A DNA stretch of 64,000 bases, taken from positions 152,992 through 216,991 of the forward strand of contig JBIKWJ010000001.1 in assembly GCA_044356325.1 (NCBI GenBank), in the 5' to 3' direction. Source of the stretch: Minisyncoccia bacterium (GTDB lineage Bacteria; Patescibacteriota; Minisyncoccia; SW-4-49-11). Below, one piece after another: positions 11,775-54,594 of this stretch. Positions within the stretch are counted from its first letter, which is position 1. The number at the start of each line of letters is the position of its first letter. The notes beneath the pieces are model-generated. The model did no database searches, was not told the origin of the DNA, and saw nothing but the letters and a program-made list of their open reading frames with translations. The position numbers were made by a program, and so were the translations under genes.

Positions 11775-11840
11775 AATTTTTTATTTTATACTATATCAAT
11801 ATATTAGCATATCATATCATATTGTCAATTAACATTATGA

Positions 11841-12125
11841 AATGAGGAGATCGTAGACAAAAGAGATTATTATACATTACTATCCTACCGGCCGTAGCTT
11901 TGTACAAAAAGTGTCCTCCTTTGCCTGCCTGCGGTAGGCAGGGAGGAGGTGGCCGTCAGGCCGGAGGTGGATAGAGTTCAGGTCTTTATCTTATCCACCC
12001 CCGCCTTTCAGGCTTCCCCCTCCTAAGGGGGACAAAAGTAATAATTCTTTTGTTACGACAATATATGCGACTGTAAGGTCGCCCCTACACAACTCATATA
12101 ATGTCTACGATGTATCTCATCTTAA
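11841..12125 (+). mobile_element. GC-rich MITE-like repeat, copy B (full length, both TIRs)
   Basis: Left end gagatcgtagaca and right end tgtctacgatgtatctc form imperfect TIRs. The body is nearly identical to copy D at 34291-34572. It sits between divergent promoters. Confidence 0.65.
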
Positions 12126-12199: not shown

Positions 12200-12937
12200 A
12201 TGATTAAATCTCTATTCACAAAGAAAATTATTATCATATCTAGTGTTGTTCTGGTATTGTGTTTAGGAATAGCCTATATCCTATTAAAGCCCGACTCTAA
12301 ACCTAAGCTCACACCTATAGATGAAGGCTTAGCCCCAATTCGAATTATCCAAATTAAAGATGGTAAAGAACAAGAAGTTAATTTTACTGAGTCAGGTGCT
12401 GAAATTATTGCAAGTGCCCTTTTTTCTGCCAATCCTTTTGATGAACAAGTACAACAAGGGGTACAAAGTCTTGGGATTGACCGCATAGATTTACCTCCTC
12501 TTCCAGAAAATCAAATTAAAGTTATCAATAATCCAGAAAATCCACAAACAGCAATTGAAAAATATTTAAAAGAAGTATATACTATATTCAAGGATAATAC
12601 TATCCAGCTTAATATAAGTCAGCTCTCTGAAGAAGCTTTGGATGGAAAAACACAAAATATTCAATCCCTACTTCACACTAATACTGATTTATATCGTTCA
12701 TTGTTCACAATAGAAGTACCCCAAGATGCATTAAAACTTCATAAAGGATATATCCGTGTCGCCCAAATACAAAATAGTTTTTTATTGGGATTATTAAATG
12801 CAAGCTCTGACCCGTTAAAACTTGATATCAATAGCAAAATTAGTGTATCTCTACTCCAAAAGATTGATGTGCCGATAAAAGAGGAGCTACAAAGTATCAG
12901 AAAAAAATACAATATCATATACCAAAAACAATCATAA
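12200..12937 (+). CDS. Membrane-anchored extracytoplasmic protein, unknown function
   Basis: 245 aa with an N-terminal TM anchor. First of five tightly linked genes. Confidence 0.45.
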   Translation: MIKSLFTKKIIIISSVVLVLCLGIAYILLKPDSKPKLTPIDEGLAPIRIIQIKDGKEQEVNFTESGAEIIASALFSANPFDEQVQQGVQSLGIDRIDLPPLPENQIKVINNPENPQTAIEKYLKEVYTIFKDNTIQLNISQLSEEALDGKTQNIQSLLHTNTDLYRSLFTIEVPQDALKLHKGYIRVAQIQNSFLLGLLNASSDPLKLDINSKISVSLLQKIDVPIKEELQSIRKKYNIIYQKQS

Positions 12938-12938
12938 T

Positions 12939-14645
12939 ATGTCTTCTCTCTTTTCTCAGAAAATGATAGTAATAATCGGAATACTTTTATTCGGGTTGTC
13001 TTTTATGTATCCCCATATTACCTATGCTGATAATTTGTATGGGCAATCTTGTGGGAATACAAAATGTAGCGGTGCTGAAGTGTGTCAAAAACAATATAGA
13101 GGAGTATTACCTATTGGATCACAAAATGATGGGAATGCAACCTTTACCTGTGTCAAGCCACAGAATATAGCAGCTCCAGATAGTCCCTACAAGGGCGTTC
13201 AGGCATCTTGTAGTGGGGTATTTCAAAAAGCATTTGGACTTGATTTAGGCTCACTTACTGGGTCAACATTAACAGACACGCTGCAGTCTGGATTAGGAAA
13301 AATAAAAAGCAGTTTAGGGCTAGATGGAATTGCATTTGGATATGATTCCAGAGGACCTCAGGTTTTGAATTTTAGTAATGTCGGATTAAACTGGAATATA
13401 GATCCTACCAATCTTCTTGCTACTGATACGGAGTATTTTAAAGATTTTGTCCCAAAATGTGATAGTGCTTATAATAATATAAAAGGTATAATTAATACCA
13501 ATTATCTTGTAGCTCCCCTTCCTGTTGATATTTTTAATCCCCTTCCCCTACCAGTAAATATAACCTCACCCACTCCACTTCCCGTAGTAGTGGTAGATGA
13601 TTTAGCCCTATATCAACAAAAAGAATTAATTGATGCGCCTCTTGCCGCCCAACAAAAAGCAAAAACCATAGCAACGGTAAGTGATACTCTCAGATATCAA
13701 ATTAGTAATGATAATTTGATTCCGAATAATTATTTTGCTCTCAAGAGCTTAGGTTGGCAATACGGAGCACTTGATCCTAATACTGGAGTTGTATCGAAAG
13801 AAGCTATAGATAGATATGGTTCATATCAAAATTTCTCATTAGATAAAAATAAAGAAATAGAACAATATTTTAAAGATTTACAAGATCAAAAAAGTCAATT
13901 GCCTGATGAGACTTTTACTCAAAGTTGTGGGAATGTCAAAACAGAAGATGCTGGAGAAATAAGTTTAGAATGTGCACTTCTTGCCCTACAAGATAATAAT
14001 ACTGCCAATGGTATTGCAAGTATTACACAGAGAATAGCTGAGGAAAAATCATTAAATGCTACTGAACTGCTTCGTCAAGAAGTTGATAACGGAAGTGGAT
14101 ATTTTGCTAAAACAAATGGGGATAAAAATCCATTTACCAAAACCATTCAAAGCCCTGGTTCAAATATAGCAAATCTTACTGATAAAGTATTAGAGTCTAC
14201 TATAGATCAGGCTATTCTAGGGTCTGGGGACAGATGTTTTGCTGCAATACCTAATAATATACTGGAGGGGTCATTGAAGCCGGTACTCACTCAAGGATTA
14301 TATGGGGTTAATAATACGTTAGCCTCCGCACAATCTAATATCATCAATAATCCCGTGAATACCCTACAGAATCCTGGTAATTTTGCAAATCAATTAAATT
14401 CTGGATTACAGGGCGCTGTTCCAGATCCTAATAGATTTTTTAAATCCCTGCAAAACTCACTCGTACAAAATGTAACTGGAGGTCTTTCTTGTGAATTTAA
14501 TAAGCAGATTTCGGGTCTACTCAATGGGGCTTTAGGCAATATTAATATTCCAGGAATTGGCAATGTAAGTGGAGCACTTACTAATACTGCAACTGGCGCT
14601 ATTGATGGAGCTCTCAATAATGCTGTTAATAGTTTGATACCATAA
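12939..14645 (+). CDS. Secreted protein with a Cys-rich N-terminal module and a Gly/Asn-rich C-terminus
   Basis: 568 aa with a signal peptide. Start is 1 bp after the upstream stop. Confidence 0.45.
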   Translation: MSSLFSQKMIVIIGILLFGLSFMYPHITYADNLYGQSCGNTKCSGAEVCQKQYRGVLPIGSQNDGNATFTCVKPQNIAAPDSPYKGVQASCSGVFQKAFGLDLGSLTGSTLTDTLQSGLGKIKSSLGLDGIAFGYDSRGPQVLNFSNVGLNWNIDPTNLLATDTEYFKDFVPKCDSAYNNIKGIINTNYLVAPLPVDIFNPLPLPVNITSPTPLPVVVVDDLALYQQKELIDAPLAAQQKAKTIATVSDTLRYQISNDNLIPNNYFALKSLGWQYGALDPNTGVVSKEAIDRYGSYQNFSLDKNKEIEQYFKDLQDQKSQLPDETFTQSCGNVKTEDAGEISLECALLALQDNNTANGIASITQRIAEEKSLNATELLRQEVDNGSGYFAKTNGDKNPFTKTIQSPGSNIANLTDKVLESTIDQAILGSGDRCFAAIPNNILEGSLKPVLTQGLYGVNNTLASAQSNIINNPVNTLQNPGNFANQLNSGLQGAVPDPNRFFKSLQNSLVQNVTGGLSCEFNKQISGLLNGALGNINIPGIGNVSGALTNTATGAIDGALNNAVNSLIP

Positions 14646-14649
14646 TATT

Positions 14650-16764
14650 ATGAAAATCAAATTATCACATATCCGTTATATAGCCCCTATACTTATTATA
14701 GCTCTTTTCTTTTTACCCGCTATAACTTATGCTGCAGATCGTCCATGGTGGGATGTGCTCAACTTAACTGGCACAATTAATGATACTTTATTAAATAGTT
14801 TAAATGGGATATTAGGTTTTTTTAAGACTGCATTAAGTACTATATTAGGTTCAGCTATTATACCTCTCCTAAACAATGTTATGTCTTTTCAAAATTTCTT
14901 TACTGATGGAGTAAATGCGGGCTGGACAGCTACCCGAGATTTTGCTAATTTATTCTTTGCTCTTATATTACTCTTTATTGCAATAGCGACCGTACTCAAT
15001 ACAGGAGGTTTAGATAATTATACTGCCAAAAGAATGCTTCCCAATTTTATATTTGCGGCTTTATTTATCAATTTTAGTAAAGCTATTGTAGGATTTTTGA
15101 TAGATATTAGCCAAATTATTATGATATCTCTGTATAATTCTTTTGGTCCAACCTTAACAGATTCAATTGCATCAGCCTCAAAAATTGCTGAAGCAGGATC
15201 AGAATCAAAAATAGACCCAGCTATTATCTCTCTTCTCACTATTATTCTTCTTGTTATTCTTATTTTTGTATTATTATGGACAGCTGTGATTTTGATCGTC
15301 AGAATAGTAACTCTTTGGTTTGTCATTATGTTATCTCCCCTAGCCTTTGTATCTGGGCTCATACCACCATTAAGTTCTATCTCGAGAAGTTGGCAAAATA
15401 TGTTGCAACAAGCTTTAATCACAGGCCCTACACTTATGTTCCTCCTATATCTTGCTGTTACGGTAATGAATGCAAGTATTGGGGGAAATACTTCTGGTGG
15501 AGGTAATCTGATAGAAAATGGTAATTTACTGAATTATGCCCTTGTTATAGGTTTATTAATAATAGCTAATATAGAAGCGCAGAAAGCTGGGCAATCTGCT
15601 CCCCCAATGCTCAAAAATGCCGTTGGAGTTGCAGGGACTGTAGCTACTTTTGGACTAGGAGCTTATGTCGGAGCAGGAGGAGTTGGTACTGGAAAAATGT
15701 TTGGGAAGGGAGGAGAATTAGTGCAAGGTGGAGTTAAAAATACTGATAAGTTAGCTGGGGGTGCTACGAGAGGTGTACAAGTTTTGACTGGGGGAAAAAT
15801 TAAAGCTAATAGCAGATATGAAGCTATGAAAAAAGATATGACCGCAGCTAATGATGCGGGTAAGGGGCTATTTGGTGGAGTAGGACAACAGTTTAGTCAA
15901 GCTGGGCAAAAAGAACAGCAAGAAGATTTTGAGCTAAAAAAAGCTAGAGATTTAGCCAAATCAAAAGCCATAGATGAACCTCAGTTCAAAAGATATCAAG
16001 GTATTTTAGCTGCCAGTCAGTCAAAAAAAGCAACTGAGATTAAAGAAATAGAAAATACTGAAATACTAGGACAACAATTAAAGGAAGCTACTGAGAAAGG
16101 CTATAAAGAAGAGGCTGCTGCATTAGCTTCAAGAATATCTACTATTAAAGATGGTTGGTCACAAGTATTTGGTGAAAAAGGTGCATTTAGTGAATATAGT
16201 AGTATTGATTATAAAAATGAAGGGGAACAATTAAAGGCATTTTTTGATAAAGAATTTGGTCCTTCTGATGATGAAAATGGAAATACGGTAACTAAGGATT
16301 TGAAAAGTCGTATTATTCGTAATCTTGAGGATAAAGGTGCAGGAAATTTTGCCTCCGGATTAACAGGGAAGAATGGATATGAAGCTGCAGGTAAAATTGG
16401 GGTCTTGGGTGCAGGAGCTATGATTGCAAAAAATAAGGCATTATTAAATAAACGCAAAATTGATCCCGATACAGGAAAAGTAGTCTTTAAACCAGATGGA
16501 TCCGCTGATTCTGAGCTTGATATTGCAAAAGTATATCCGATTATTGCAAATGAAACTTCCTTAGATATTTTAAGAGATCCTAAATCATGGACTCAATATT
16601 CCCGTATAGAGACTATTAAATTACTAAAAGCACTATTAGAAAATCCTAAAAAGTATATAGATGAAAAAGTAATTTCTTCATTTGATAAAGAAAAAGTTGA
16701 GGCTGCCTTAATTGGACTAGGGGACACTCCTTCAAAAAGATCAGCTGGTTTTAGAACAAGCTAA
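14650..16764 (+). CDS. VirB6/TrbL-like polytopic membrane protein with a long hydrophilic C-terminal extension
   Basis: 704 aa. Signal peptide, a periplasmic segment, 5-7 TM helices, then a Gly/Lys-rich low-complexity tail. This is the architecture of T4SS VirB6/TrbL-type proteins. Identified by architecture only. Confidence 0.4.
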   Translation: MKIKLSHIRYIAPILIIALFFLPAITYAADRPWWDVLNLTGTINDTLLNSLNGILGFFKTALSTILGSAIIPLLNNVMSFQNFFTDGVNAGWTATRDFANLFFALILLFIAIATVLNTGGLDNYTAKRMLPNFIFAALFINFSKAIVGFLIDISQIIMISLYNSFGPTLTDSIASASKIAEAGSESKIDPAIISLLTIILLVILIFVLLWTAVILIVRIVTLWFVIMLSPLAFVSGLIPPLSSISRSWQNMLQQALITGPTLMFLLYLAVTVMNASIGGNTSGGGNLIENGNLLNYALVIGLLIIANIEAQKAGQSAPPMLKNAVGVAGTVATFGLGAYVGAGGVGTGKMFGKGGELVQGGVKNTDKLAGGATRGVQVLTGGKIKANSRYEAMKKDMTAANDAGKGLFGGVGQQFSQAGQKEQQEDFELKKARDLAKSKAIDEPQFKRYQGILAASQSKKATEIKEIENTEILGQQLKEATEKGYKEEAAALASRISTIKDGWSQVFGEKGAFSEYSSIDYKNEGEQLKAFFDKEFGPSDDENGNTVTKDLKSRIIRNLEDKGAGNFASGLTGKNGYEAAGKIGVLGAGAMIAKNKALLNKRKIDPDTGKVVFKPDGSADSELDIAKVYPIIANETSLDILRDPKSWTQYSRIETIKLLKALLENPKKYIDEKVISSFDKEKVEAALIGLGDTPSKRSAGFRTS

Positions 16765-16773
16765 AAACACCCT

Positions 16774-17649
16774 ATGACACTCGCAGATATCAAAAGTGAA
16801 GCACAGGCCCTTATCACCACAGACAATGTGCCGGGATCTCTTGAATTTGCGGAGAAATTAGAGAAATCTCTTAATGAGAATAATATTAAGGACTCTAATG
16901 CTGAGGCTTATCGCGAATTATCTAAGATTATATTCCAACTTTATGTTACTGCTATTCCCAATATATCTACTGAATTATTCCATAAAATCATTTCACTCAA
17001 TATTATAGAGGCTTTGAGTCCTCTCTGGCCTTCTGAGCGTGATTTTGCCGCCCGAATTGAAAGTAGATATTCTATTTACCCAGTAGAGCTCATCAAAGAA
17101 GAGATGCGCAAGGATTTACTTCCCCTTCTTAAACAAAATAGTCAGCTTATTGGATCTGTAGTATTACGATTGTCTCAAGAAAACCCTCAAGCTAAGCCAA
17201 GTATTAATAATTGGATTGAATATTATGATAGAACTACTGGACTTGGGTCTAGTAATAGTTTTCAGCGTTCTCGTTTTATTAGTGGAGACCCCATTGTACA
17301 AACATTAAATCCTGAGGAAAAAGAGTCCCTCCGAAAAGTAATTCAATTCTATGACTATCTCCAAACTGATGAGACAGTCTTATATCAAGATATTTATAAT
17401 ACTACTAATACTGCCCCTCAAACAAATCTCAATACCATTAGCCCTAATATTCCCTCTCAACCAGTAAATCCCAATCCAATTTCTACACCTCAATCAGATA
17501 TTACGGTTCCAATTCCTGCTCCCAATAATATTCCCCAACCTGCAATTCCCCGAACTCCAATTCCTCGGCGGACTTCTGCTCCTGTAGTATTGACAGCTAA
17601 GCCAACTCCAATTCCACAAAATCTTGTTAATCTCAAAAAACCAGAATAA
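16774..17649 (+). CDS. Hypothetical protein with a Pro-rich C-terminus
   Basis: 291 aa, no TM helix. The C-terminal 80 aa are P/T/N/I-rich. Confidence 0.4.
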   Translation: MTLADIKSEAQALITTDNVPGSLEFAEKLEKSLNENNIKDSNAEAYRELSKIIFQLYVTAIPNISTELFHKIISLNIIEALSPLWPSERDFAARIESRYSIYPVELIKEEMRKDLLPLLKQNSQLIGSVVLRLSQENPQAKPSINNWIEYYDRTTGLGSSNSFQRSRFISGDPIVQTLNPEEKESLRKVIQFYDYLQTDETVLYQDIYNTTNTAPQTNLNTISPNIPSQPVNPNPISTPQSDITVPIPAPNNIPQPAIPRTPIPRRTSAPVVLTAKPTPIPQNLVNLKKPE

Positions 17650-17651
17650 TT

Positions 17652-18095
17652 ATGCAACAATATAATATTCCACAATTTATTGATTCTGAAGATAAAATTA
17701 TTGGTCCTCTGACCATAAGGCAATTTGCATTTTTGGCAATTGGAGTGGTAATTGGAGGATTTTTATGGTATTTTAAACCCAATTTGGGAGTTTTTGTGAT
17801 TAGTGTATTGCCTGTTGTAGTTGGAACTTTTACTTTTGCTTTTATTAAAATTAATGGCCAAAACTTTGATATATTTATTGTCAATGTTATGGTTTATATT
17901 CTGAAGCCAACTTTATTCCTTTGGTCTCGAGACATAGACCCAACTCAATCAGTTATTAAAGTATCCATTGAAAAACGTAAAGCCTCATTTAGGCGAGAGA
18001 CTCATGATTATAATCAATCTCGTGTAGAAGAAGTAGCTTGGACTCTAGATAGTTATGGTGAGAAAACGGTAATTCCAGATATTGCAACAGAATAA
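17652..18095 (+). CDS. PrgI-family (VirB3-like) small membrane protein
   Basis: 147 aa. N-terminal IPQFIDSEDKIIGPLTIRQFAFLAIG followed by two TM helices matches the PrgI/VirB3-like pattern IPKDL..K...LT.RQ seen in Gram-positive conjugation loci. Confidence 0.45.
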   Translation: MQQYNIPQFIDSEDKIIGPLTIRQFAFLAIGVVIGGFLWYFKPNLGVFVISVLPVVVGTFTFAFIKINGQNFDIFIVNVMVYILKPTLFLWSRDIDPTQSVIKVSIEKRKASFRRETHDYNQSRVEEVAWTLDSYGEKTVIPDIATE

Positions 18096-18338
18096 CTATT
18101 TTGTATTATTGGTATCTTTTAAAGTTTCAGTATTAGCTTTACTATTTTCTTCTACACTATTTTGTATTTCCTCAACCTGATTTTTATCTTTTGTCTCAAT
18201 AGTACTTGGTATCTCTGGCTTAGTAAAAGATATATTTGAAAAATTAAGAATCATAGACCAAATAAATACTCCTACTATAATAATACTCCCTATTACAAAT
18301 AGTATTATCAATTGTTTTTTCTTTTTATCGCTGTCCAT
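18096..18338 (-). CDS. Small single-pass membrane protein
   Basis: 80 aa. Lys-rich N-terminus, one TM helix, acidic C-terminus. Confidence 0.3.
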   Translation of the reverse strand: MDSDKKKKQLIILFVIGSIIIVGVFIWSMILNFSNISFTKPEIPSTIETKDKNQVEEIQNSVEENSKANTETLKDTNNTK

Positions 18339-18349
18339 TAATCCCCCTC

Positions 18350-19558
18350 TTAATCTTTGTTTATAAGCTTACTATGTCTTGACATTACCAAAATCATTAA
18401 CCCAGCCAAACTTAATACGGCTAATCCCATATATCTATCATTGTGTAAAAATCCAAATTTAGATGCACTTTGTATATTAGCACTGAGTGGAATTTTATCC
18501 TTATTAATAATAAAAGACTTAGTCGCATTAGCATCTCCATTAATATCCTTTACTACTATATCTATTTTATAAGCTTGATTGGGATCAATGTCGAGGGATA
18601 AAGAATTACCACTTCCATCCTGTACTTCATCATTAACTCTATAAGTATAGGATAATTTTGCATTTTGCCCAATATTATCTACATCACTGGATATTAATAG
18701 CTGTATTCCCTCATCAATTTTTAAATCATCAGCATAATCAATAGGAGTATTATTCTTATTATTGACAAGCGAGACCCGAATTGCAGGCTGTTTAATCGCA
18801 ATAGTATTTATCCCATAATATCTGGTATATCCTGTTACTCTATCTCTTGCAATAGCTTGTATAATATAATTTTTATCATATCCTTTATTCTCCGCAAAGG
18901 TAATTTTATTATTATTTTGCTCTACGGTATTACCATCAATTTTCCACTCAATTACATATTGTGATATAGGTAGCTCTGTTGCAACCGAAATAGTATCCCC
19001 TTTTGCAGGATTGAGTGGTCTATAGTCGAGGGAAATTTTATCAAAAATCTCCAAACTAATACTCCCAGTTTTAATTATTCCTTGAGAATTGACAGCAATC
19101 TCTATTTGATAAGTCCCTGAGTCTGGGAATGTATAAAAAAATACAGTTTTATCAATACCACTTACTTCGAATACTACTTTGTCGCCCTTTTTTATTCTCC
19201 AATTATATTGAGCCCCATCAAATACAAAACTTTTATCTATATGATAATTAATAGTTGCAAAATCAATTTGTTGTTTAGTAAAGAGATATTTGTTTTTTAC
19301 TACGAGTTTAATCTCTCCTGTTGATGATTTTTCGATATAATAACTATCTGCAAAACTTTGCTTAATATAGTTATCAATAAGAATATTAGCCTCATCCTGA
19401 GTTTTGGGATCATTATTAGCAAGAGTTGATTGTGTAGCGGTATTGAGTAAATTTGTTGAGCTATTAGATGTGGGGGTGTCTTGTGCTAATACTGTTGATG
19501 AATTCAAGAGTATTATACCCATCAAGAATACTCCTATTATATATTGTGAATATTTCAT
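18350..19558 (-). CDS. Surface protein with Ig-like (PKD/Big-like) repeats and a C-terminal TM anchor
   Basis: 402 aa with a signal peptide. Several beta-rich repeats such as GDKVVFEVSG..GTYQIEIAV. The final 25 aa form a hydrophobic anchor plus a basic tail. Confidence 0.45.
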   Translation of the reverse strand: MKYSQYIIGVFLMGIILLNSSTVLAQDTPTSNSSTNLLNTATQSTLANNDPKTQDEANILIDNYIKQSFADSYYIEKSSTGEIKLVVKNKYLFTKQQIDFATINYHIDKSFVFDGAQYNWRIKKGDKVVFEVSGIDKTVFFYTFPDSGTYQIEIAVNSQGIIKTGSISLEIFDKISLDYRPLNPAKGDTISVATELPISQYVIEWKIDGNTVEQNNNKITFAENKGYDKNYIIQAIARDRVTGYTRYYGINTIAIKQPAIRVSLVNNKNNTPIDYADDLKIDEGIQLLISSDVDNIGQNAKLSYTYRVNDEVQDGSGNSLSLDIDPNQAYKIDIVVKDINGDANATKSFIINKDKIPLSANIQSASKFGFLHNDRYMGLAVLSLAGLMILVMSRHSKLINKD

Positions 19559-19612
19559 TGATATTAATTAAATTTGTATTTAGTATATCATATTATTCTT
19601 GATATTTGGAAT

Positions 19613-20257
19613 TTATCTTTTTGCTGCCACTGGCTGAGGTTTTGCACTACGGTTAAAGTTACGAATATTATTCACAGCTCCTGATACACTGAGTGATTGT
19701 CTCCATTTATTTAGAGAATCCTCAAATTTCTCATTATCTTCTTTCATTTGTTTTGCTCGGGATCGATGTGCCTTAATATGAAGCCATGCACCAATAGTCC
19801 AAGTTGGAGAAAAATCTCCAAGAAATGGAATTAACTCTACAACCCCCTTAATTATAAGACTTACTATTCTTTTCCAGCCAAATTCCATAACATAGCCTCC
19901 TATTTTATCCAACATATATTTACTAGCTTCTTGAGTTTTACGAGCTAAAGCCTGTTGAATTTTGCTTTGTGCGGGGCTTGCATTACGAGATCTCTGAGAT
20001 AAACGTAACAATTCACTAATTTTACTCATTTGATATGATTTTAAATTAGTATAATATATGGCAAGATAACCATAATATATGGCACAAAATACAATATCCG
20101 TCATAATAGCTACAATATCTAGCACAAAAGATCCAACAAGAGAAATCACTTGAATAACTGGTATAAAATTAATAATAAATAATATGAATCCTAAAAGATC
20201 CCACATTACGGCAAATCCAAGATTAATATATAACCACATTCCACTTAATGGCTTCAT
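19613..20257 (-). CDS. Membrane protein, unknown function
   Basis: 214 aa. Two to three N-terminal TM helices, then a basic hydrophilic domain. Confidence 0.4.
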   Translation of the reverse strand: MKPLSGMWLYINLGFAVMWDLLGFILFIINFIPVIQVISLVGSFVLDIVAIMTDIVFCAIYYGYLAIYYTNLKSYQMSKISELLRLSQRSRNASPAQSKIQQALARKTQEASKYMLDKIGGYVMEFGWKRIVSLIIKGVVELIPFLGDFSPTWTIGAWLHIKAHRSRAKQMKEDNEKFEDSLNKWRQSLSVSGAVNNIRNFNRSAKPQPVAAKR

Positions 20258-22561: not shown

Positions 22562-24163
22562 CTATAACATACTGTTACCAATAGGAATTCCTGTTGGTAC
22601 ACTATCAAGTCCCTCCGGAGATACAACAATAATATTATTCCATTTATACCCTAATCCTTCAAATACCGCTGGAGAGGCTACATAGCGTTTTTTTCCATCA
22701 GACATTATATAAACTTCCCCTCTGCCCGAGGCTCTCAGAATTACTCCATCCCGAAAATATACCGCTGGCCCCTGTTGATAAGAATTCCATTCAGCCCCTG
22801 ATACATATACTAAATCTTTATAATTATATTGAGTGTCGAATACTTCTGGACTTGGTATTGGACGCCTTTTCCCCGTTTCCAAAACCTCTATTCCTGTTGG
22901 ATTATCGCGATTAACCAATAATGTCCCATCTGGATAGGGGCGAGATTGCATAATAGGTCCAATTGAATGAGATATTGCAAGAGTCCCATCTGGAATAATA
23001 GTAATATTATTCCACTTATAGCCTAAGGCCTCAAAAGTAACTGGAGATGGAATATGTCTTCTTTGCTGATTACTAATTACATATACATCGGGATTATTCC
23101 GTTCTCTTACCAACATTCCTTCTCTGAATGTAAGAGCTGAAGCTAAAGGATAAGAATCCCACTCGGCACGTGTGACATCTAATACATCTTTCCATTTAAA
23201 ACGAGAATTAAAAACATCAGGATTTACGAGAGGCCTAATACTTCCATTCTCGAGATATCCAACTCCCGTATCTGTTCTTAATAATGATCCATTTGGGAAA
23301 GTTCGAATATTACTATTATCAGGGAATAAGGCTAATTCGGTTGCATTAATACTAATCACATTTTTCCCTCCAATATTACCAGTAGGAGTTTTTATCCCAT
23401 TTTGAATAGTATAAAGACGACCATTATCATCTCGATACAGCGAATTATCATAATATTGCTTCCACTCTTGAGCTCGATTCCGAAGCCAGCTCATATCAAC
23501 CATATTAGTGTCTCCATTTCCAGCTTCTACAGCTCCATGATCAGTAAGTCGAAAGCCGGTATAATTAGAACTGTATGCTTTGGTATAAAAATTCCAAATA
23601 GGTTCAGTCATATAATCTGTAGGGGCAATACTATTGGTTGAACTAAGCCATCCAGATAATTTGGCTAAAGATTGTTTCATAGCTTCCGGTACTGTTGCAT
23701 AGCCACTTCCATAGCGACCAATCAGAGAAACTCCTATACTTTGATAATTAAAATTATCTCCGGTACTATTCACATAAAGATGAGCTCCTCTCACCCCATT
23801 TTGTCCCATTCTCCCCTGATAAATACTCCCATCGCGAGCTATCAGATAATTATACCCTATATCACCCCAACCATTATTACGGGCATGTGTGGTGAATATT
23901 GAACGAATTATTTGTCTTGGGTCAAGGGAGTCACCATTAAAGTCAGCCAAAGCAGTATCATGTAATAATATTCTCTTTATCTGCAAAGTATTATTAGAAT
24001 TTGGTGGCCAATTATTGAGGGTATAGGTATTATCATCTGCTGTTGCCCAAGTATTGCGAGATTGTATATTGGGAGTACTTGCAAAAGTGGGTCGTGGTAA
24101 TATCAATGCTATCAACATTATCATTGGCAATAGTATTGATTGCAAACATAATATCAAATTCAT
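22562..24163 (-). CDS. Secreted N-acetylmuramoyl-L-alanine amidase (Amidase_2/PGRP-like) with three C-terminal ~57-aa repeats
   Basis: 533 aa with a signal peptide. GWGDIGYNYLIARDGSIYQGR is a PGRP/amidase_2 signature. The C-terminal repeats have consensus DG.L...G.VYVI.NG.KR.I.SP.VF...GY.W..V. Confidence 0.6.
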   Translation of the reverse strand: MNLILCLQSILLPMIMLIALILPRPTFASTPNIQSRNTWATADDNTYTLNNWPPNSNNTLQIKRILLHDTALADFNGDSLDPRQIIRSIFTTHARNNGWGDIGYNYLIARDGSIYQGRMGQNGVRGAHLYVNSTGDNFNYQSIGVSLIGRYGSGYATVPEAMKQSLAKLSGWLSSTNSIAPTDYMTEPIWNFYTKAYSSNYTGFRLTDHGAVEAGNGDTNMVDMSWLRNRAQEWKQYYDNSLYRDDNGRLYTIQNGIKTPTGNIGGKNVISINATELALFPDNSNIRTFPNGSLLRTDTGVGYLENGSIRPLVNPDVFNSRFKWKDVLDVTRAEWDSYPLASALTFREGMLVRERNNPDVYVISNQQRRHIPSPVTFEALGYKWNNITIIPDGTLAISHSIGPIMQSRPYPDGTLLVNRDNPTGIEVLETGKRRPIPSPEVFDTQYNYKDLVYVSGAEWNSYQQGPAVYFRDGVILRASGRGEVYIMSDGKKRYVASPAVFEGLGYKWNNIIVVSPEGLDSVPTGIPIGNSML

Positions 24164-24165
24164 AA

Positions 24166-26106
24166 TTAAGGCAAGGGTCCTACTGGAATTGACTGATCAA
24201 TCATAAATCCATATTGTAATGTATCATCAGTAACTACTCCTAGAGCCAACATAGCCTCAGGAGAAAGCCCAGATACACGATTCGTAAATATAGCAGGACC
24301 AGATTCCATAATAGTTGTAACAAGTCTTCTACCATTGGCGGGATTTGTCACCAAAACTTTACGTCCTCGATGCCAATTTTTAGCAGTATTATTAAAATCT
24401 GTACTACGAGTACGTCCTCTCCAGACATCTGTTCTAAACTCATAGACTTCTTGTACAGTACTTCCTGAATTATGAGATTTTGCAGAAGCAGCCACAGTAG
24501 GACTATCTACTCCTCGCTGAGATACAATAAGACTATTCCCATCTTTACCACTATATGCAATAATTTCCCCATTGATAATAACCCAACCTGTATTAGGGTA
24601 ATCTGACACATTAGCAAGTGGTATTCTGTTAGCAGAAGTATCTATATTCTGAGTAAGCGTACTCATAGCCTCATACCATCGCACATAATTCCAACGCATA
24701 GTAATATAATACTTCTCCTCTTCAACACCAAATGGAGCATAGCTCGAATTGATACTTCCTCCTGGACAAGTTAATGCAAAGGCTCCTCCCGTAGTTAATA
24801 GGCCATTTTGTGCTGAGGCTGGAGTTGAAGCTCGGACATAATGATCAGCACTTGTTTCATTACAATCGCGGGCAAGATGCTGTTCACGAGCTGTTCTACC
24901 ACTTGTAGCTGGGATAGCATATCCGTCTAAACTAGCAGCTTGAATATCTGAGAGAGCAGATCCCATAGCATTAGAATTAAACTCATCTTCAGATACTGCA
25001 TTTACATTAGCCCAATTATATCCCCTCGCCGTAAATATTGCTGGACTTGGAATACCTCGCTTTAATCCCCCTTCAATCACATATACTCCTCCTCCAAAAG
25101 ATATCAAATTGCCATCTCTAAATCCAACTCTTCCTGCTCGTGAATATTGATTAATGACACTGTCTGGTAATCTCAGCACAGAACCCCAGTCATAACCTTG
25201 GCTCACAAAGATATTAGGGCTTATGATAGGCTGTAAGTTGCCATTATTATTGACCCGAAACACTGCTCCACTTCTTGCACCGACAAGAGAACCTTCCATA
25301 TATCGTTTCACCGTATTAAAGGCTCCGGATTCAGGAATAATAGATAATTCAAAATCTGTAGCTCGCTTTACTTGTCCCCAATTAAGTCCATAACTCTCAA
25401 AAACAGCAGGAGAAGTAATAGGCTGCCGCACATTATTCTGCATCATAAATACTCCTGTAGCACTAGATATCAATAATCCATCAGGATAGAATTCATTAGC
25501 TCCCTGGGGATAGGTATTAAGATATGCCTCTGAGACCTCAATCAGAGATTCCCAACGATATCTTGCTTGAAATATAAGAGGACTAGGAATATATCTTCTC
25601 TGCCCATTTTTAATCACAAATACTTCCCCTCCTGGTTTTACCAATAAACTTCCATTGGGATGTTTGGCAGCTGTAGTTAAGCCAGGTCCCTGAGGCTGAG
25701 GAGCAAGTTCCGCATCACTTACCGCAATGACATTAGACCATTTATACCCCTTTTGAAGAAAAGTACTCGGAGAGTCAATAGGCAATCTCTGCCCATCAGA
25801 TATTACAAAGACTCCACCTCTATTAGATAATAATGATCCATCTCTATATGTCATTTGTGGACCATTAGGCAGGGCATCAATTTCATTAGGAGTAGTCACT
25901 ACCAAATCCTCCCATCTAAATTGAGACCTCAACATATTAGGAGACTCAATAGGACGCTTTTGTCCATTATCAATATAATAAACTTTGGGGTTATTAGTAG
26001 ATTTTAGCAATATTCCATTAGGAAAGCTTGGACTACTCGCATAACTCATTAATGGGAATGCCCATATCAAAGCAACAGTAATTAAAATTTTATTTGATAT
26101 TTTCAT
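24166..26106 (-). CDS. Secreted protein with six ~57-aa repeats and a C-terminal RlpA-like double-psi beta-barrel domain
   Basis: 646 aa with a signal peptide. The repeats are homologous to those in the adjacent amidase. C-terminal KVLVTNPANGRRLVTTIMESGPAIF..RVSGLSPEAMLALGV resembles the RlpA/3D lytic-transglycosylase fold. Confidence 0.5.
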   Translation of the reverse strand: MKISNKILITVALIWAFPLMSYASSPSFPNGILLKSTNNPKVYYIDNGQKRPIESPNMLRSQFRWEDLVVTTPNEIDALPNGPQMTYRDGSLLSNRGGVFVISDGQRLPIDSPSTFLQKGYKWSNVIAVSDAELAPQPQGPGLTTAAKHPNGSLLVKPGGEVFVIKNGQRRYIPSPLIFQARYRWESLIEVSEAYLNTYPQGANEFYPDGLLISSATGVFMMQNNVRQPITSPAVFESYGLNWGQVKRATDFELSIIPESGAFNTVKRYMEGSLVGARSGAVFRVNNNGNLQPIISPNIFVSQGYDWGSVLRLPDSVINQYSRAGRVGFRDGNLISFGGGVYVIEGGLKRGIPSPAIFTARGYNWANVNAVSEDEFNSNAMGSALSDIQAASLDGYAIPATSGRTAREQHLARDCNETSADHYVRASTPASAQNGLLTTGGAFALTCPGGSINSSYAPFGVEEEKYYITMRWNYVRWYEAMSTLTQNIDTSANRIPLANVSDYPNTGWVIINGEIIAYSGKDGNSLIVSQRGVDSPTVAASAKSHNSGSTVQEVYEFRTDVWRGRTRSTDFNNTAKNWHRGRKVLVTNPANGRRLVTTIMESGPAIFTNRVSGLSPEAMLALGVVTDDTLQYGFMIDQSIPVGPLP

Positions 26107-34238: not shown

Positions 34239-34290
34239 ATTAAAATAAATTATATCATATATTGACAATTGTTGCAAAGCTTTTTATGAG

Positions 34291-34572
34291 ATGAGGAGAT
34301 CGTAGACAAAAGAAATTATTATACATTACTATCCTACCGGCCGTAGCTTTGTACAAAAATTGTCCTCCTTTGCCTGCCTGCGGTAGGCAGGGAGGAGGTG
34401 GCCGTCAGGCCGGAGGTGGATAGAGTTTAAGTTTGTATTTTATCCACCCCCGCCTTTCAGGCACCCCCTCCAAAGGGGGACAAAAGTAATAATTCTCTTG
34501 TTACTACAATATATGCGACTATAAGGTCGCCCCTACGTAACTCATATAATGTCTACGATGTATCTCATCTTA
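34291..34572 (+). mobile_element. GC-rich MITE-like repeat, copy D (full length, both TIRs)
   Basis: Near-identical to copy B. TIRs are gagatcgtagaca and tgtctacgatgtatctc. It sits between the msrA stop and the NUDIX promoter. Confidence 0.65.
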
Positions 34573-45938: not shown

Positions 45939-46937
45939 TTAAGGGAGATCTCTAATAGGACCAGTACCTGTTGGCCAGACACAGTTAACATTTATATGGT
46001 AGTTACCATTATAATCACCATAATTATTACAAGTCTCAGTCCCCCCAGGTTGAAATCCTTGTATACTAGAGCCTGGTCCAGCAGGTACTCCCCATACAGT
46101 TGAACAAATAGAACTTATAACTCCAGGGTCAGTACAGGCACCCTCAAAACCAGTTGGACCTCCCGCACAAGTATCCGCATATCCTGAGTAAGCTGTATAA
46201 GCTTGAGTTAATTCACATTTCCATATACCACTTCTCTTAACTGCGCTATAAGCAATGCCTCCACTCTGTGTTGCACCATTACACGATGTCCGGCTTCTAA
46301 GATTGTAAAGTGTATTACATCTAATCTGTGCTTCTGGTTGAGTTAATATTGGTGTTGGAGTTGGAGTTGGTGTTGGTGTTGGAGTTGGTGTTGGAGTTGG
46401 TGTTGGAGTTGGTGTTGGAGTTGGTGTTGGAGTTGGTGTTGGAGTTGGTGTTGGTGGAGTTAAAGAATTATTTCGTGGCATTGTAGTTGATTGCATTGTA
46501 ACTGTATCTTTACCATCTACAGATTTGGCTGTAATAACTACAGTCACTATAGTTCCTGGGCTATTATTATTTACTGAACTACCATCCCCAGCCTTAATAA
46601 AAAATCTAATATCCTCAACGGTAAATACACTAGAATCAGTATAGGCATTACCTGACTTATTGATAATATTGCCAGCTTTTGTATATACTACATTTGCACC
46701 ACTTTGATCTTTAAATGATAATGCACCTGATGCATTAATACTAAGATTCGATGAGGTTCTCAATTCTTTGTCCATCACATTCAAAACAAATTGCACATTA
46801 TCTCTTACATTATCACTTTGTTGAGAATCTCTTTGATATTTGATAATATTAGTAATAGGTTGGGCTACTACCAATACAATAATAGATAATATACCGATTA
46901 CCACTGTTAATTCTGTTAGAGTAAATCCTTTTCTCAT
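45939..46937 (-). CDS. Type IV pilin-like protein with a (TP)n linker and a Cys-rich C-terminal domain
   Basis: Prepilin leader MRKGFTLTELTVVIG is a class III signal. About 25 tandem TP dipeptides. The C-terminal roughly 130 aa contain 10 Cys. Confidence 0.6.
   Translation of the reverse strand: MRKGFTLTELTVVIGILSIIVLVVAQPITNIIKYQRDSQQSDNVRDNVQFVLNVMDKELRTSSNLSINASGALSFKDQSGANVVYTKAGNIINKSGNAYTDSSVFTVEDIRFFIKAGDGSSVNNNSPGTIVTVVITAKSVDGKDTVTMQSTTMPRNNSLTPPTPTPTPTPTPTPTPTPTPTPTPTPTPTPTPTPTPILTQPEAQIRCNTLYNLRSRTSCNGATQSGGIAYSAVKRSGIWKCELTQAYTAYSGYADTCAGGPTGFEGACTDPGVISSICSTVWGVPAGPGSSIQGFQPGGTETCNNYGDYNGNYHINVNCVWPTGTGPIRDLP
46351..46462. repeat. Tandem repeat (ggtgtt/ggagtt units, about 9 x 12 bp) encoding the (TP)n linker
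   Basis: Perfect 6/12-bp periodicity visible in the DNA. Confidence 0.8.
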
Positions 46938-46953
46938 ATATTTAATCCGCAAT

Positions 46954-47478
46954 CTATTTTTTATTAATATCAAATAATTCCATATCTGCTGAATATATTT
47001 TGGTCTTATTTAAATTCAAGTTTCTTACTATAACGGTACTTTTAACTTTTATTCTATCTAGATTAACTGTATCCGATTGTACGGTAATATAGCGATAAAA
47101 TATAGTACCAGCAGTACCCAAAATATAACCATTATTGCCATCTTGTATTAAAGAACAGGTATTATTCCAGGTAGTTGTACTACAAGTTGAAGTTAAGCTC
47201 AAACCATTTTGAATATTCGTTTTATAATCAACTACATATTTACCATCAGCCAATCCAGCATTCCATACTGCCCCTGGGGTAGTGTCATTAAGATTACTTT
47301 GATATATGGCTCTTACTATCTCTAATCCCTCGGACATCAATAAATTAGCAGTATTATCATATTGCTTATCAAACTTAGCTTTAATAATACCTACCTGTAA
47401 ATTTAAAAGTGGAATAAAGGTAATTAATAATATTGATATTGCAACCAATGCACCTACTAATGTGGCTCCTTTTTTCAT
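46954..47478 (-). CDS. Minor pilin-like protein (non-canonical, lacks Glu5)
   Basis: 174 aa. MKKGATLVGALVAISILL hydrophobic N-terminus after a basic leader. Sits inside the pilin gene block. Confidence 0.45.
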   Translation of the reverse strand: MKKGATLVGALVAISILLITFIPLLNLQVGIIKAKFDKQYDNTANLLMSEGLEIVRAIYQSNLNDTTPGAVWNAGLADGKYVVDYKTNIQNGLSLTSTCSTTTWNNTCSLIQDGNNGYILGTAGTIFYRYITVQSDTVNLDRIKVKSTVIVRNLNLNKTKIYSADMELFDINKK

Positions 47479-47479
47479 A

Positions 47480-47962
47480 TTAGTTTACTTTTATTAACCC
47501 TGAGTTTGTCACGGTGATTGTCTTTGCTACAACCCCTGATAATTCTAATTGTAATGATTTTTCGCCAACTGTATTAGTTGCAAAAGGAAGTCTAAATTCA
47601 AATGCTCCTGTTGCTGTTCCAAAACTTGCAGCACTTAATACAATTTCCTCTCCATAATCTTCAGTATCATTGCAAGCCCCTCCAACTCCATCAACTACAT
47701 AATAAGATTGTAGTTTTTTCTGAGCATTAAAACGTACTCCCATAGCACAAAGTTTATCATTAACTCCCATTCCCAAATCACCGGTAGAGGGTGATAAAGC
47801 TCTATTCTGAGCTTGTCTGATAGCAGAGGTTACAGTTATTACATCTGCTTTTAATTTTGCACTACGCTGAGTAGTGATATAGGATTGTACTCCAATAGTA
47901 GATAATATAGTAATAATAGAAATAGATACGAGTAGCTCTGCTAATGTGAATCCTTTTTGCAT
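47480..47962 (-). CDS. Type IV minor pilin / pseudopilin
   Basis: 160 aa. MQKGFTLAELLVSISII prepilin-type N-terminal cleavage/methylation motif. Confidence 0.65.
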   Translation of the reverse strand: MQKGFTLAELLVSISIITILSTIGVQSYITTQRSAKLKADVITVTSAIRQAQNRALSPSTGDLGMGVNDKLCAMGVRFNAQKKLQSYYVVDGVGGACNDTEDYGEEIVLSAASFGTATGAFEFRLPFATNTVGEKSLQLELSGVVAKTITVTNSGLIKVN

Positions 47963-47964
47963 TT

Positions 47965-48798
47965 TTATATATTAAGTATAATCCAATAATACCATATATT
48001 AATAGGTGGGACAAGCTGAATTTGAATTAAGGTATATACTATTACAAATGAAAGTATAATACTTGGTCCAAAAGCAATTTTTTGCTTGAGAGAAGAATTC
48101 CGATTCATAAGCATTACCCATATTCCCCATATCATTCCTATCACAAATGAGCCAAAGAAAAATGGAACAAACCACATCAAAGGGATAAATAATCCGAGTC
48201 CCGCAAATAATTCCACATCCCCCCAACCTATACCCTGTTTTTTGGTAATAATATATAAGAATAATACAATACCAGCACTAGTAATAGCGGTTATGAGTGA
48301 ATCGGGTATAATTGGTCTTGTTTGATAATACTCTAGACAGAAATATATTAGTCCCAATATTTGTATAGCACGTAGCTGAATTATGGAAATCAATTGATAC
48401 CGTAAATCATATACAAAGACAATAATAAGTTGAGTTATAAGAATAAATATAATAAGCCCTCGTATATACTGTATTGGAGTAAATGTATACAGAGATACTA
48501 AATCTGGAATATACAAATAAGCAAATCCTGTAAAAAGAACGGCTGTTAATAATTCTACAAGAGGGTATTGCAGAGATAATTTCACTTGACATTCTCTACA
48601 TCTACCCTTTTGTATAATATAAGACAATAGTGGTATAAGCTCATACCATTCAAGAGTATGATGACAAGACATACATTCTGATCTACCATTCCAAAATTTT
48701 TTCTCGCTGGTCATCCTGAATAATACCACATTCAAAAAACTCCCTATACCTAAACCTAAAATAAATATTATTCCTAATATATAATATATTGCATCCAT
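47965..48798 (-). CDS. pilD: Prepilin peptidase (A24 family)
   Basis: 277 aa. N-terminal CxxC...CxxC zinc-binding region, polytopic TM body with conserved Asp residues. Confidence 0.8.
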   Translation of the reverse strand: MDAIYYILGIIFILGLGIGSFLNVVLFRMTSEKKFWNGRSECMSCHHTLEWYELIPLLSYIIQKGRCRECQVKLSLQYPLVELLTAVLFTGFAYLYIPDLVSLYTFTPIQYIRGLIIFILITQLIIVFVYDLRYQLISIIQLRAIQILGLIYFCLEYYQTRPIIPDSLITAITSAGIVLFLYIITKKQGIGWGDVELFAGLGLFIPLMWFVPFFFGSFVIGMIWGIWVMLMNRNSSLKQKIAFGPSIILSFVIVYTLIQIQLVPPINIWYYWIILNI

Positions 48799-48889
48799 AT
48801 TATTTTATTTGTCTGTATACACAATATATTCCAATTATTTTGATAGATAAAAGATTAAATAATCTCTTATCTATACAAAGTAATTTGAA

Positions 48890-49276
48890 TTATGGACAAG
48901 CAACGGCAGTTGCTGCTGGCGCAGACGTAAGATTCTTTGAGACTCCCGCACTATCAACACAATAAAATCCTCCTGAAGGAAGAGCTGACCATGACACAAA
49001 AGTTGTTCCCAAAGCACTACTTTCACTCAAACTACCCCCATTATTAGAGATTGTAGTTCTAATTGGTGAACTAGATGGTGTGGCAACATAACCAGTACCA
49101 GGATTATTTAACTCTTTATCTGATCTAATTTGTGCTAAAGCTGATATAATTGCAGTATCTCTCGCCTTAGTACGAGCACTTGACACATTCACCAATACTA
49201 CTGCAGCTAAAATACCAATAATAGCAATAACTACAAGTAATTCGATAAGTGTAAATCCTTTTCTTAATTGTTTCAT
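48890..49276 (-). CDS. pilA: Type IV major pilin candidate
   Basis: 128 aa. MKQLRKGFTLIELLVVIAIIGILAAV canonical class III signal. C-terminal Cys pair forms a disulfide-bonded loop. Confidence 0.75.
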   Translation of the reverse strand: MKQLRKGFTLIELLVVIAIIGILAAVVLVNVSSARTKARDTAIISALAQIRSDKELNNPGTGYVATPSSSPIRTTISNNGGSLSESSALGTTFVSWSALPSGGFYCVDSAGVSKNLTSAPAATAVACP

Positions 49277-49335
49277 TTATTTACACCCCCCTTCCGCATA
49301 TATATTCTTATTTATATTTTAATTCTAAGTATATT

Positions 49336-50553: not shown

Positions 50554-50571
50554 ATATATAGTCTCTTATTT

Positions 50572-51645: not shown

Positions 51646-51657
51646 ATGTATGTTATT

Positions 51658-52038: not shown

Positions 52039-52099
52039 ATGTATATATTTTTATTTACTCTTATTCTGTATTGATAATATCATATGTTTATTATTTTGC

Positions 52100-53999: not shown

Positions 54000-54001
54000 A
54001 T

Positions 54002-54589: not shown

Positions 54590-54594
54590 ATCAT

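Follow-up and report, generated by a model that had tools for sequence, protein, structure and literature searches.

The closest described systems are the T4SSs of Patescibacteria (survey of Quinonero-Coronel et al. 2025; PMC12102498). VirB4 was found in 2,417 of the 3,035 genomes of Patescibacteria; of the homologues of VirB3 and VirB6, only 880 of 1,649 and 304 of 480, respectively, were located near virB4, and a lone TrsD-VirB4 pair was present in many of the genomes (PMC12102498). The locus described here shares with these systems a PrgI-type VirB3, a VirB6-like polytopic protein and an unannotated gene between VirB6 and VirB3. It is likewise chromosomal, located among housekeeping genes and without a relaxase nearby, and its genes for the VirB6-like, 291-aa and PrgI proteins have homologues in operons that run on into TrsD-VirB4. 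It differs from them in that the TrsD-VirB4 pair is non-adjacent across a whole clade, in that the locus is not near dnaA/dnaN, in that no VirB2-like pilin array was noticed beside it, and in that its first two genes are without detectable counterparts in canonical operons.

The MPF-FATA prototype, prgH-prgI-prgJ (VirB6-VirB3-VirB4) of pCF10 from Enterococcus faecalis, also has a VirB6-like gene followed by PrgI, a small PrgI with two TM helices, and a monoderm envelope. However, prgI of pCF10 overlaps prgJ/VirB4 (PMC12857230), whereas no VirB4 follows here, and an extra soluble gene parts VirB6 from PrgI in the present locus. The pCF10 system is, in addition, carried on a plasmid and conjugative, and it includes both a relaxase and a T4CP. 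In the rvh system of Rickettsia, the T4SS components are distributed over several chromosomal sites and are thought to form one machine (PMC12102498), which resembles a split reading of the present locus. In contrast, rvh is of the diderm MPF-T class with other components, and here it is the VirB3-VirB4 junction that is broken.

The window (the whole 64,000-nucleotide stretch of DNA that was analyzed) contains five plus-strand genes separated by 1, 4, 9 and 2 bp in the ORF list (whole-stretch coordinates), which gave the same coordinates as the initial annotation of five genes 1-10 bp apart. Gene 1 (12200-12937) encodes a bitopic membrane protein of 245 aa (ORF list and TM scan) and gene 2 (12939-14645) a secreted Cys-rich protein of 568 aa (ORF list and hydropathy scan). 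Gene 3 (14650-16764) encodes a polytopic protein of 704 aa, predicted to be an extended VirB6/TrbL-like protein (Pfam, NCBIfam, BLASTP and AF2), gene 4 (16774-17649) a soluble, presumably cytoplasmic protein of 291 aa (hydropathy scan and BLASTP), and gene 5 (17652-18095) a small PrgI/VirB3-like membrane protein of 147 aa (PF12666 and BLASTP). The initial description of each protein agreed with the hydropathy scan. Downstream is a convergent trio of minus-strand genes, encoding an 80-aa single-TM protein (18096-18338; ORF list and TM scan), a 402-aa protein with a signal peptide, a C-terminal TM anchor and weak PKD_4/Ig-like matches (18350-19558), and a 214-aa membrane protein (19613-20257; ORF list and TM scan). 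The stop codon of the first of these genes abuts that of gene 5 with 0 bases between them, confirming that the operon ends after the VirB3-like gene and that the next gene is on the opposite strand. The G+C of the cluster equals that of its surroundings.

In five loci of distant CPR bacteria (L010, L011, L012, L027 and L028), referred to here as canonical, the order is VirB6-like protein, soluble protein(s), PrgI, TraC-like/TrsD and VirB4. The same order is found in GCA_000990175.1 (genes 293, 295, 296 and 297; Table S3 of PMC12102498). The 704-aa and 147-aa proteins matched the corresponding genes in L010, L011 and L012, and the 291-aa protein matched in L010 only (E values from 1e-38 to 4e-7); homologues of the 704-aa and 147-aa proteins occur in the same VirB4-linked pattern in L027 and L028. 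In about 17 related lineages (Paceibacteria-named MAGs and Ca. Elulimicrobium), the operon terminates after PrgI. This freshwater group, whose MAGs carry the names Paceibacteria or Parcubacteria and which includes Ca. Elulimicrobium humile, is referred to here as the split clade. At least 15 split-clade loci have in common a left flank of ytxH (YtxH) and a 115-aa TM gene and a right flank of the convergent trio, glyA (SHMT) and folD (FolD). These flanks are retained in the split clade down to 31-36% identity of the VirB6-like protein.

The VirB4 ATPase, which is the signature protein of every T4SS, was present within 10 kb in 0 of at least 15 related split loci. TrsD/TraC-like (PF26593) gave no BLAST or Pfam match in any split-clade locus and was present in all five canonical loci. 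A VirB4 gene adjacent in relatives had been named beforehand as an observation that would speak against the initial annotation; it was found in the distant L010, L011, L012, L027 and L028 and not in the split clade. Since VirB4 adjacency is confined to distant relatives, the break is an old rearrangement fixed clade-wide and not a recent local event. The dN/dS values of all genes, the C-terminal region of the VirB6-like gene excepted, were 0.07-0.30, indicating purifying selection.

Conservation within the cluster is highest in gene 5, which also has the lowest dN/dS (0.07-0.11). Its product matched PF12666 (PrgI) over profile positions 2-81 of 91 with an E value of 3.6e-10; the score of 40.7 bits exceeds the Pfam gathering cutoff of 27, which supports the PrgI/VirB3-like identity first proposed for it, and a precomputed PF12666 match exists for all orthologues. 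Hydrophobic segments are located at around residues 16-34 and 47-65, with a weaker one at 72-90, and the N-terminus bears the IPQFIDSEDKIIGPLTIRQF motif. By BLASTP, the protein matched the products of PrgI genes directly upstream of TrsD-VirB4 (E values from 2e-20 to 7e-13), and P7, Q8, F9, E13, K15, Q24, A63, F64, N68 and G69 are invariant in split and canonical loci. VirB3 has a single established role, the binding and anchoring of VirB4 in a 1:1 ratio (PMC12857230). The N-terminal motif is the same in the split and the VirB4-adjacent versions, which fits a retained VirB4 binding. Because virB3 usually adjoins virB4 and co-evolves with it (PMC12857230), the clade-wide separation of PrgI from VirB4 is atypical.

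Gene 3 encodes seven hydrophobic segments, namely, a signal/TM segment and at least six hydrophobic helices (hydropathy scan). The VirB6/TrbL-like assignment in the initial annotation was supported by several comparisons. TrbL (PF04610) scored 16.6 bits, below the gathering cutoff of 25.9, over profile positions 34-213 of 215, and matched 13 of 59 members of the gene 3 family (best E value, 2e-4). A precomputed match to TrbL_3 (PF19590; E ≤ 1e-5) exists for gene 3 and for many homologues; our own Pfam scan gave none. The NCBIfam model for the CD3337/EF1877 mobilome membrane protein matched with an E value of 0.0018, and BLASTP against the VirB6-like genes of VirB4-containing operons gave E values of 1e-38, 1e-28 and 4e-11. 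The top structural matches were TrwI/VirB6 of R388 (PDB 7o3v and 8rtd), with Foldseek E values of 0.065-0.17 that are not significant alone; the predicted fold resembles that of solved VirB6.

In the AF2 model of gene 3, long helices extend over residues 43-316 (pLDDT 80-95), and the helical membrane core (about residues 50-320) is conserved. The hydrophilic tail, residues 320-704, contains 48 Gly and 48 Lys and is Gly/Lys-rich as initially described; it is, however, not a uniform tail, in that residues 321-420 are modeled as a disordered Gly-rich linker and residues 421-694 as a folded helical C-terminal domain (pLDDT 75-90). An extended VirB6 consists of a membrane core plus a large central or C-proximal hydrophilic domain (PMC12857230), and the modeled gene 3 product corresponds to this definition. 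In the comparison with L017, the core was 81% identical, with an omega of 0.16, and residues 401-704 were 23-30% identical, with an omega of 0.5-0.9. This level of identity in the C-terminal domain was observed between species whose neighboring genes are approximately 90% identical.

The gene 4 product has 0 TM segments and 30 Pro residues, mainly in the C-terminal part (hydropathy scan). A variable Pro-rich linker joins its helical N-terminal part to a C-terminal motif, SAPxVLTAKPxPIPxNLVNLK, whose columns are conserved in the alignment. It is homologous to the product of a 326-aa gene between the VirB6-like gene and PrgI in L010 (BLASTP E value, 4e-7), and in canonical CPR T4SS operons the same position, between VirB6 and PrgI, is taken by the soluble gene(s). 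There were 68 database homologues with 57-72% identity, and dN/dS was 0.14-0.20. The AF2 model was of low quality (pLDDT 46.8), so that no fold was assigned.

Gene 1 encodes one N-terminal TM segment (around residues 10-28) followed by a domain of about 215 aa (hydropathy scan). The alignment of 15 orthologues (23-91% identity) showed invariant Y/P/D positions, dN/dS was 0.13, and the gene is specific to the split clade. It had no match in Pfam, NCBIfam or PDB sequences, and hhalign detected no similarity to the bitopic gene that precedes VirB6 in the canonical locus L010. As a bitopic protein, it is a positional candidate for a VirB8-like (NTF2-fold) protein, an assignment for which sequence profiles gave no match. 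Gene 2 encodes a signal-like N-terminal segment and 10 Cys residues (hydropathy scan), of which 8 are invariant over 15 orthologues (positions 38, 43, 49, 71, 330, 345, 433 and 518), together with a Pro-rich motif around residues 193-240 that is highly conserved; dN/dS was 0.17-0.23. A Pfam match was found in 0 of the 15 orthologues, and comparison by hhalign with an upstream L010 gene gave no match. The gene 2 product is presumed to be an extracytoplasmic component. The public gene call begins at an internal Met and gives 546 aa; the longer 568-aa ORF is the better model because the shorter one would drop the signal peptide.

Orthologues of the convergent trio adjoin PrgI in every complete split-clade locus, and their dN/dS was 0.13-0.30. 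They showed no similarity to the genes that follow VirB4 in canonical loci, and no homology of genes 1 and 2 or the trio to known T4SS components was detected by Pfam, NCBIfam, BLASTP or hhalign. It is uncertain whether the trio belongs to the T4SS-like system; adjacency alone is no proof of membership, since the housekeeping flanks are equally syntenic. Further along, 4.5 kb from the operon, are an Amidase_2 protein (22562-24163) and, related to it, a secreted repeat protein of 646 aa, both of which remain within 10 kb of the operon despite a rearranged flank in L013. No VirB1 homologue (cell-wall hydrolase role) was found at the locus. The GC-rich repeat reported directly upstream of the operon was located at 11835-12124, with further copies at 34284-34572 and near 28198. 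Relatives have an upstream spacer of 125-135 bp, against 425 bp here, and the repeat is a species-specific insertion.

The absence of VirB4 and VirD4 nearby, as initially annotated, was upheld by Pfam scans of the larger ORFs and by precomputed Pfam matches, with none in the window. Across 83 kb of the contig (record 26,674-109,921, the window plus 10 kb on each side), Pfam detected no VirB4, TrsD or coupling protein (VirD4/TcpA type). The missing T4CP says little, because the T4CP in Patescibacteria is usually far from virB4 (PMC12102498). The called genes in the same 83 kb also included no relaxase, integrase or other sign of mobility. A conjugative element (ICE/plasmid T4SS) is not supported, given the absence of relaxase and integrase in the 83 kb, the conserved housekeeping flanks and the G+C, which is that of the surroundings. 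To call the locus an orphan overstated its novelty, as many VirB3 and VirB6 homologues not near virB4 have been reported already (PMC12102498); ATPase genes located apart from the membrane genes are an arrangement counted in the 2025 survey (PMC12102498).

The reading that we favor, with a probability of roughly 0.7, is a split T4SS, with the membrane half encoded here and the ATPase genes encoded elsewhere, assembling in trans. The operon would represent the membrane-embedded and envelope-exposed half of a Patescibacteria-type T4SS derived from the monoderm MPF-FATA class. The extended VirB6-like protein may form a membrane platform or channel, PrgI/VirB3-like would be what is normally the membrane anchor of VirB4, the 291-aa protein a conserved soluble partner, and the 245-aa and 568-aa proteins two extracytoplasmic proteins. 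In the ancestor of the freshwater clade, an operon of the order VirB6-like protein, soluble protein, PrgI, TrsD and VirB4 was severed directly after prgI. Its first half is now situated between ytxH and glyA-folD, and the trsD-virB4 ATPase pair would be located elsewhere in the chromosome, its products joining the membrane proteins in trans. The gene identities, the homology to VirB4-linked operons, the position of the break, the conservation throughout the clade and the purifying selection are observed; we infer that VirB4 is encoded elsewhere in this genome and that the proteins work as one machine. ATPases encoded elsewhere had been one of the options offered initially; it is now the preferred one, although the 83 kb of contig is without VirB4.

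Another option offered initially was a repurposed apparatus. It is unlikely that VirB4 was lost or is unused and that the module has taken on a new role as a membrane or surface complex independent of an ATPase, for example, a host-interface channel or an attachment structure. Such an outcome is consistent with the lack of VirB4, TrsD and T4CP in the 83 kb, with their lack within 10 kb in at least 15 related loci, and with genes 1 and 2 and the trio being envelope proteins specific to the split clade. About 20% of Patescibacteria assemblies are also without detectable VirB4 (PMC12102498), but this may reflect incomplete MAGs. PrgI, however, is the most constrained protein (omega 0.07), it shares its N-terminal motif unchanged with VirB4-adjacent PrgI, VirB4 anchoring is the only role established for a VirB3 (PMC12857230), and two T4SS reviews describe no VirB4-less system derived from a T4SS. 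Quite unlikely, too, is a VirB6/VirB3-like module acting as a VirB4-free envelope complex, or, as a separate proposal, a VirB6 C-terminal domain serving as a surface-exposed host-specificity determinant.

Multiple extended-VirB6 paralogues are known in Rickettsiales T4SSs, and the locus could be a duplicated module with a specialized or alternative role, in addition to a complete VirB6-PrgI-TrsD-VirB4 operon elsewhere. Some Patescibacteria genomes do have two VirB3 homologues, one linked to TrsD-VirB4 and one unlinked, as in GCA_000989885.1 (genes 360 and 484). This possibility is doubtful here, however, as the search for homologues of the 704-aa protein gave one family with a continuous identity series, and the sole other homologues were distant and VirB4-linked, with different gene content and mostly different G+C. 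No second copy was present on the split-clade contigs, a weak argument given that about 20 kb per genome was covered. Decay of a conjugative or integrative element after loss of the ATPase genes, which had been offered initially and would match the end of the cluster at the expected VirB4 position and the mobile-looking GC-rich repeat just upstream, is very improbable, because all genes are under purifying selection (five intact ORFs with dN/dS of 0.07-0.23, bar the VirB6-like tail), the same housekeeping flanks (aspS, a plsC-like acyltransferase gene and ytxH to one side, glyA and folD to the other) occur in about 17 lineages, the G+C is like that of the surroundings, neighboring called genes include no integrase or relaxase, and the repeat is specific to the species.

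For the split T4SS, a function can be proposed by analogy. In Ca. Southlakia epibionticum, the one genetically tractable Patescibacterium, the T4SS is essential and its genes are needed for epibiotic growth (Wang et al. 2023, as summarized in PMC12857230). As far as the Southlakia genetics summarized in PMC12102498 and PMC12857230 extend, the role of the machine may lie in epibiotic interaction with a host and not in conjugation. The C-terminal domain of the VirB6-like protein outpaces all of its surroundings in evolution and is therefore a candidate for lineage-specific interactions. The soluble protein encoded between VirB6 and PrgI belongs to the conserved, though so far unannotated, components of CPR T4SS operons. 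The known category of Patescibacteria T4SS is unchanged by these findings. The VirB3-VirB4 gene junction, a hallmark of T4SS annotation, can break and stay broken lineage-wide, so that the membrane half of the system escapes neighborhood surveys centered on virB4.

Five plus-strand open reading frames were found at 12200-12937, 12939-14645, 14650-16764, 16774-17649 and 17652-18095, where the initial annotation had placed them, with intergenic gaps of 1, 4, 9 and 2 bp. A hydropathy scan reproduced the features described for all five products. The 245-aa product of the first gene has a single N-terminal TM segment, and the 568-aa product of the second has a signal-like N terminus and 10 Cys residues. 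The 704-aa product has a signal/TM segment and at least six hydrophobic helices followed by a hydrophilic Gly/Lys-rich tail; the 291-aa product contains 30 Pro residues and no TM segment, and the 147-aa product has two to three hydrophobic segments. For the second gene, the public gene call begins at an internal Met (window 12939-13004; 8290-8355 in L001, the window's own locus record) and yields 546 aa, a start that would delete a signal peptide kept in the orthologues. The gene following the 147-aa gene, at 18096-18338, lies on the minus strand and encodes 80 aa. The stop codons of these two convergent genes touch at 18095/18096 with no intergenic base, as they also do in L015-L017, so any terminator must lie inside the opposite gene. 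The G+C content of the operon is that of the surrounding sequence, and consensus scans for promoters and terminators performed no better than on shuffled sequence.

One copy of a GC-rich element, about 290 nt long and bounded by terminal inverted repeats, lies in the promoter region of the operon. The genome has a G+C content of 33%, and three to four copies occur in 64 kb (11835-12124, 28198 to at least 28338, 34284-34572 and a diverged inverted copy at about 2593-2665). The element folds as a long hairpin (-110.7 kcal/mol, z of -6.7 versus shuffles), resembles a MITE and has no match in Rfam. The copy next to the operon is an insertion, as shown by an upstream spacer of 425 bp in the window against 125-135 bp in the compared relatives, whose spacers all lack the element.

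The proposed PrgI/VirB3-like nature of the 147-aa protein was confirmed by a match to Pfam PrgI (PF12666) at 40.7 bits against a cutoff of 27. For the 704-aa protein, the match to TrbL/VirB6 (PF04610) was weak, at 16.6 bits and below the cutoff of 25.9, and covered profile positions 34-213 of 215. Another weak match (E = 0.0018) was to the NCBIfam CD3337/EF1877 mobilome membrane protein model. TrbL was matched by 13 of the 59 members of the 704-aa family, and TrbL_3 (PF19590) is assigned to the protein and many of its homologues in the public collection. No meaningful PDB match came from sequence-profile searches with the 704-, 245- and 147-aa families. An AlphaFold2 model of the 704-aa protein, built on an alignment of 59 homologues, predicted a confident membrane core at residues about 50-320 (pLDDT 80-95), a disordered Gly-rich linker at 321-420 and a folded helical domain at 421-694 (pLDDT 75-90).

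The window lies on a JGI contig of 252,788 bp. In the public protein collection, the 704-aa family forms about 100 clusters, among them one from "Ca. Elulimicrobium humile" and some from Parcubacteria, Paceibacteria or Minisyncoccia MAGs. In the sampled related lineages, about 17 distinct loci (L005, L006/L017, L008, L013-L025, L063 and L064) share one layout as far as each contig extends: acyltransferase, YtxH and small TM genes on the minus strand, the five-gene operon, three or four convergent envelope genes, and glyA-folD. It persists in loci whose VirB6-like protein has as little as 31-36% identity with the window protein. A few more distant homologues (L010, adjoined by dnaA-dnaN, and L011, L012, L027 and L028; one named Buchananbacteria) have instead the order VirB6-like, one or two soluble proteins, PrgI, TraC-like/TrsD and VirB4. 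VirB4 is adjacent in these five distant loci, but the VirB4 HMM matched in none of the about 17 closer ones. Homology to the counterparts in the VirB4 operons was detected for the 704-, 291- and 147-aa proteins (E values of 1e-38, 4e-7 and 2e-20, respectively). In GCA_000990175.1, VirB6, VirB3, TrsD and VirB4 are genes 293, 295, 296 and 297 (Table S3 of PMC12102498), and the unannotated gene 294 occupies the position of the 291-aa protein. Judged by this homology and gene order, the window operon is the 5' portion of the standard T4SS operon of Patescibacteria, which has been cut directly after prgI. The cut is old and fixed across the whole clade.

Genes 1 and 2 and the three convergent minus-strand genes (80, 402 and 214 aa; 18096-20257) encode conserved envelope proteins for which no relative could be detected among known T4SS components. 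The families of genes 1 and 2 showed no similarity by hhalign to the two genes that precede VirB6 in L010, and neither did the convergent genes by BLAST to genes downstream of VirB4. By position, gene 1 is a candidate VirB8-like protein. A concatenated 245- plus 291-aa query retrieved homologues of the 291-aa protein only. The AlphaFold2 model of the 291-aa protein (pLDDT 46.8) was too poor for a fold search. This protein carries a conserved C-terminal motif after a variable Pro-rich linker, and it might be speculated that the motif resembles a docking peptide. One homologue, P0247, is longer, at 417 aa, owing to a tandem duplication of its Pro-rich tail and conserved motif.

Clade members that branch deeply have a fourth convergent gene of about 371-380 aa, missing from the window, which separates the small TM gene from the 402-aa homologue (L005 14162-15277, L013 13898-15013, L063 13922-15064 and L064 9331-10446). 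Two minus-strand genes at 22562-26106 encode a 533-aa Amidase_2 cell-wall hydrolase and a secreted protein of 646 aa, which have in common a repeated motif (...R.IPSP..F...GY.W..V.). In relatives, no more than 10 kb separates the pair from the T4SS module, on whose other side it lies in L013; the pair could be a wall-opening partner of the system or unrelated to it.

The VirB6-like protein is 55% identical to its orthologue in L017, the closest sampled species, versus 83-95% for the neighboring genes. This divergence is regional. The membrane core is 81% identical with an omega of 0.16, while residues 401-704 (gene at 14650-16764) are 23-30% identical with an omega of 0.5-0.9 and nonetheless are predicted to be folded (pLDDT 75-90). 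The C-terminal region may be read as a fast-evolving domain. Allele swapping was considered as the source of the divergence and rejected; identity values of the core rank in the same order as those of the neighboring genes, which makes faster evolution the simpler reading.

To assess selection, dN/dS was calculated for eight cluster genes between the window and three relatives of increasing distance. The VirB6-like C-terminal region apart, values were 0.07-0.30, similar to those of flanking genes, and the lowest were for PrgI (0.07-0.11). The N-terminal PrgI residues P7, Q8, F9, E13, K15 and Q24, as well as A63, F64, N68 and G69, are invariant between the clade with the cut operon and the TrsD-VirB4-adjacent proteins.

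The initial annotation had noted an operon without VirB4 or VirD4, and no VirB4, TrsD or coupling protein was found in the window or 10 kb past each edge (83 kb in all, extending 22 kb from the operon in one direction and 55 kb in the other). The 10-kb extensions contain housekeeping, glycosyltransferase and pilus genes only. A profile of three CPR VirB4s gave 8000 matches, the best 120 of which were all from other lineages. With the GC-rich repeat as a probe of metagenome contigs, 32 matches were obtained, mostly chance matches to GC-rich contigs; six loci of low GC content were reached, none with a VirB4. A complete type IV pilus cluster occupies 45939-56197 on the minus strand, encoding PilM-like (55127-56197), PilB (52100-53848), PilT-like (50572-51645) and PilC (49336-50553) proteins, a prepilin peptidase (47965-48798) and a 344-aa protein with an N-terminal methylation motif (45939-46973). 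The last of these genes includes a 12-nt tandem repeat (46311-46468).

We infer, with a probability of roughly 0.7, that this is a split T4SS whose VirB4 is encoded elsewhere in the genome, because PrgI, whose only known role is 1:1 binding of VirB4 (PMC12857230), is strongly constrained and because the operon shares ancestry with VirB4-linked operons. The survey of Patescibacteria T4SS (Quinonero-Coronel et al. 2025, PMC12102498) also argues for this reading, since VirB4 occurs in 2,417 of 3,035 genomes, only 880 of 1,649 VirB3 and 304 of 480 VirB6 homologues lie near virB4, and many genomes have a lone TrsD-VirB4 pair. A module truly without VirB4, with which the negative searches would agree but the constraint on PrgI would not, is unlikely, and an extra paralogous module is equally so. 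A decayed remnant, one of the alternatives first offered, is highly improbable given the purifying selection, the invariant PrgI motif and the lack of mobile-element signs among genes of the window and 10 kb past each edge.

The locus is the Patescibacteria T4SS of that survey, whose statistics already imply such an arrangement, but it was not described there for this clade. Three features deserve note: the VirB3-VirB4 junction is broken throughout the clade, a soluble gene is conserved between VirB6 and PrgI, and the C-terminal domain of VirB6 is apparently fast-evolving.
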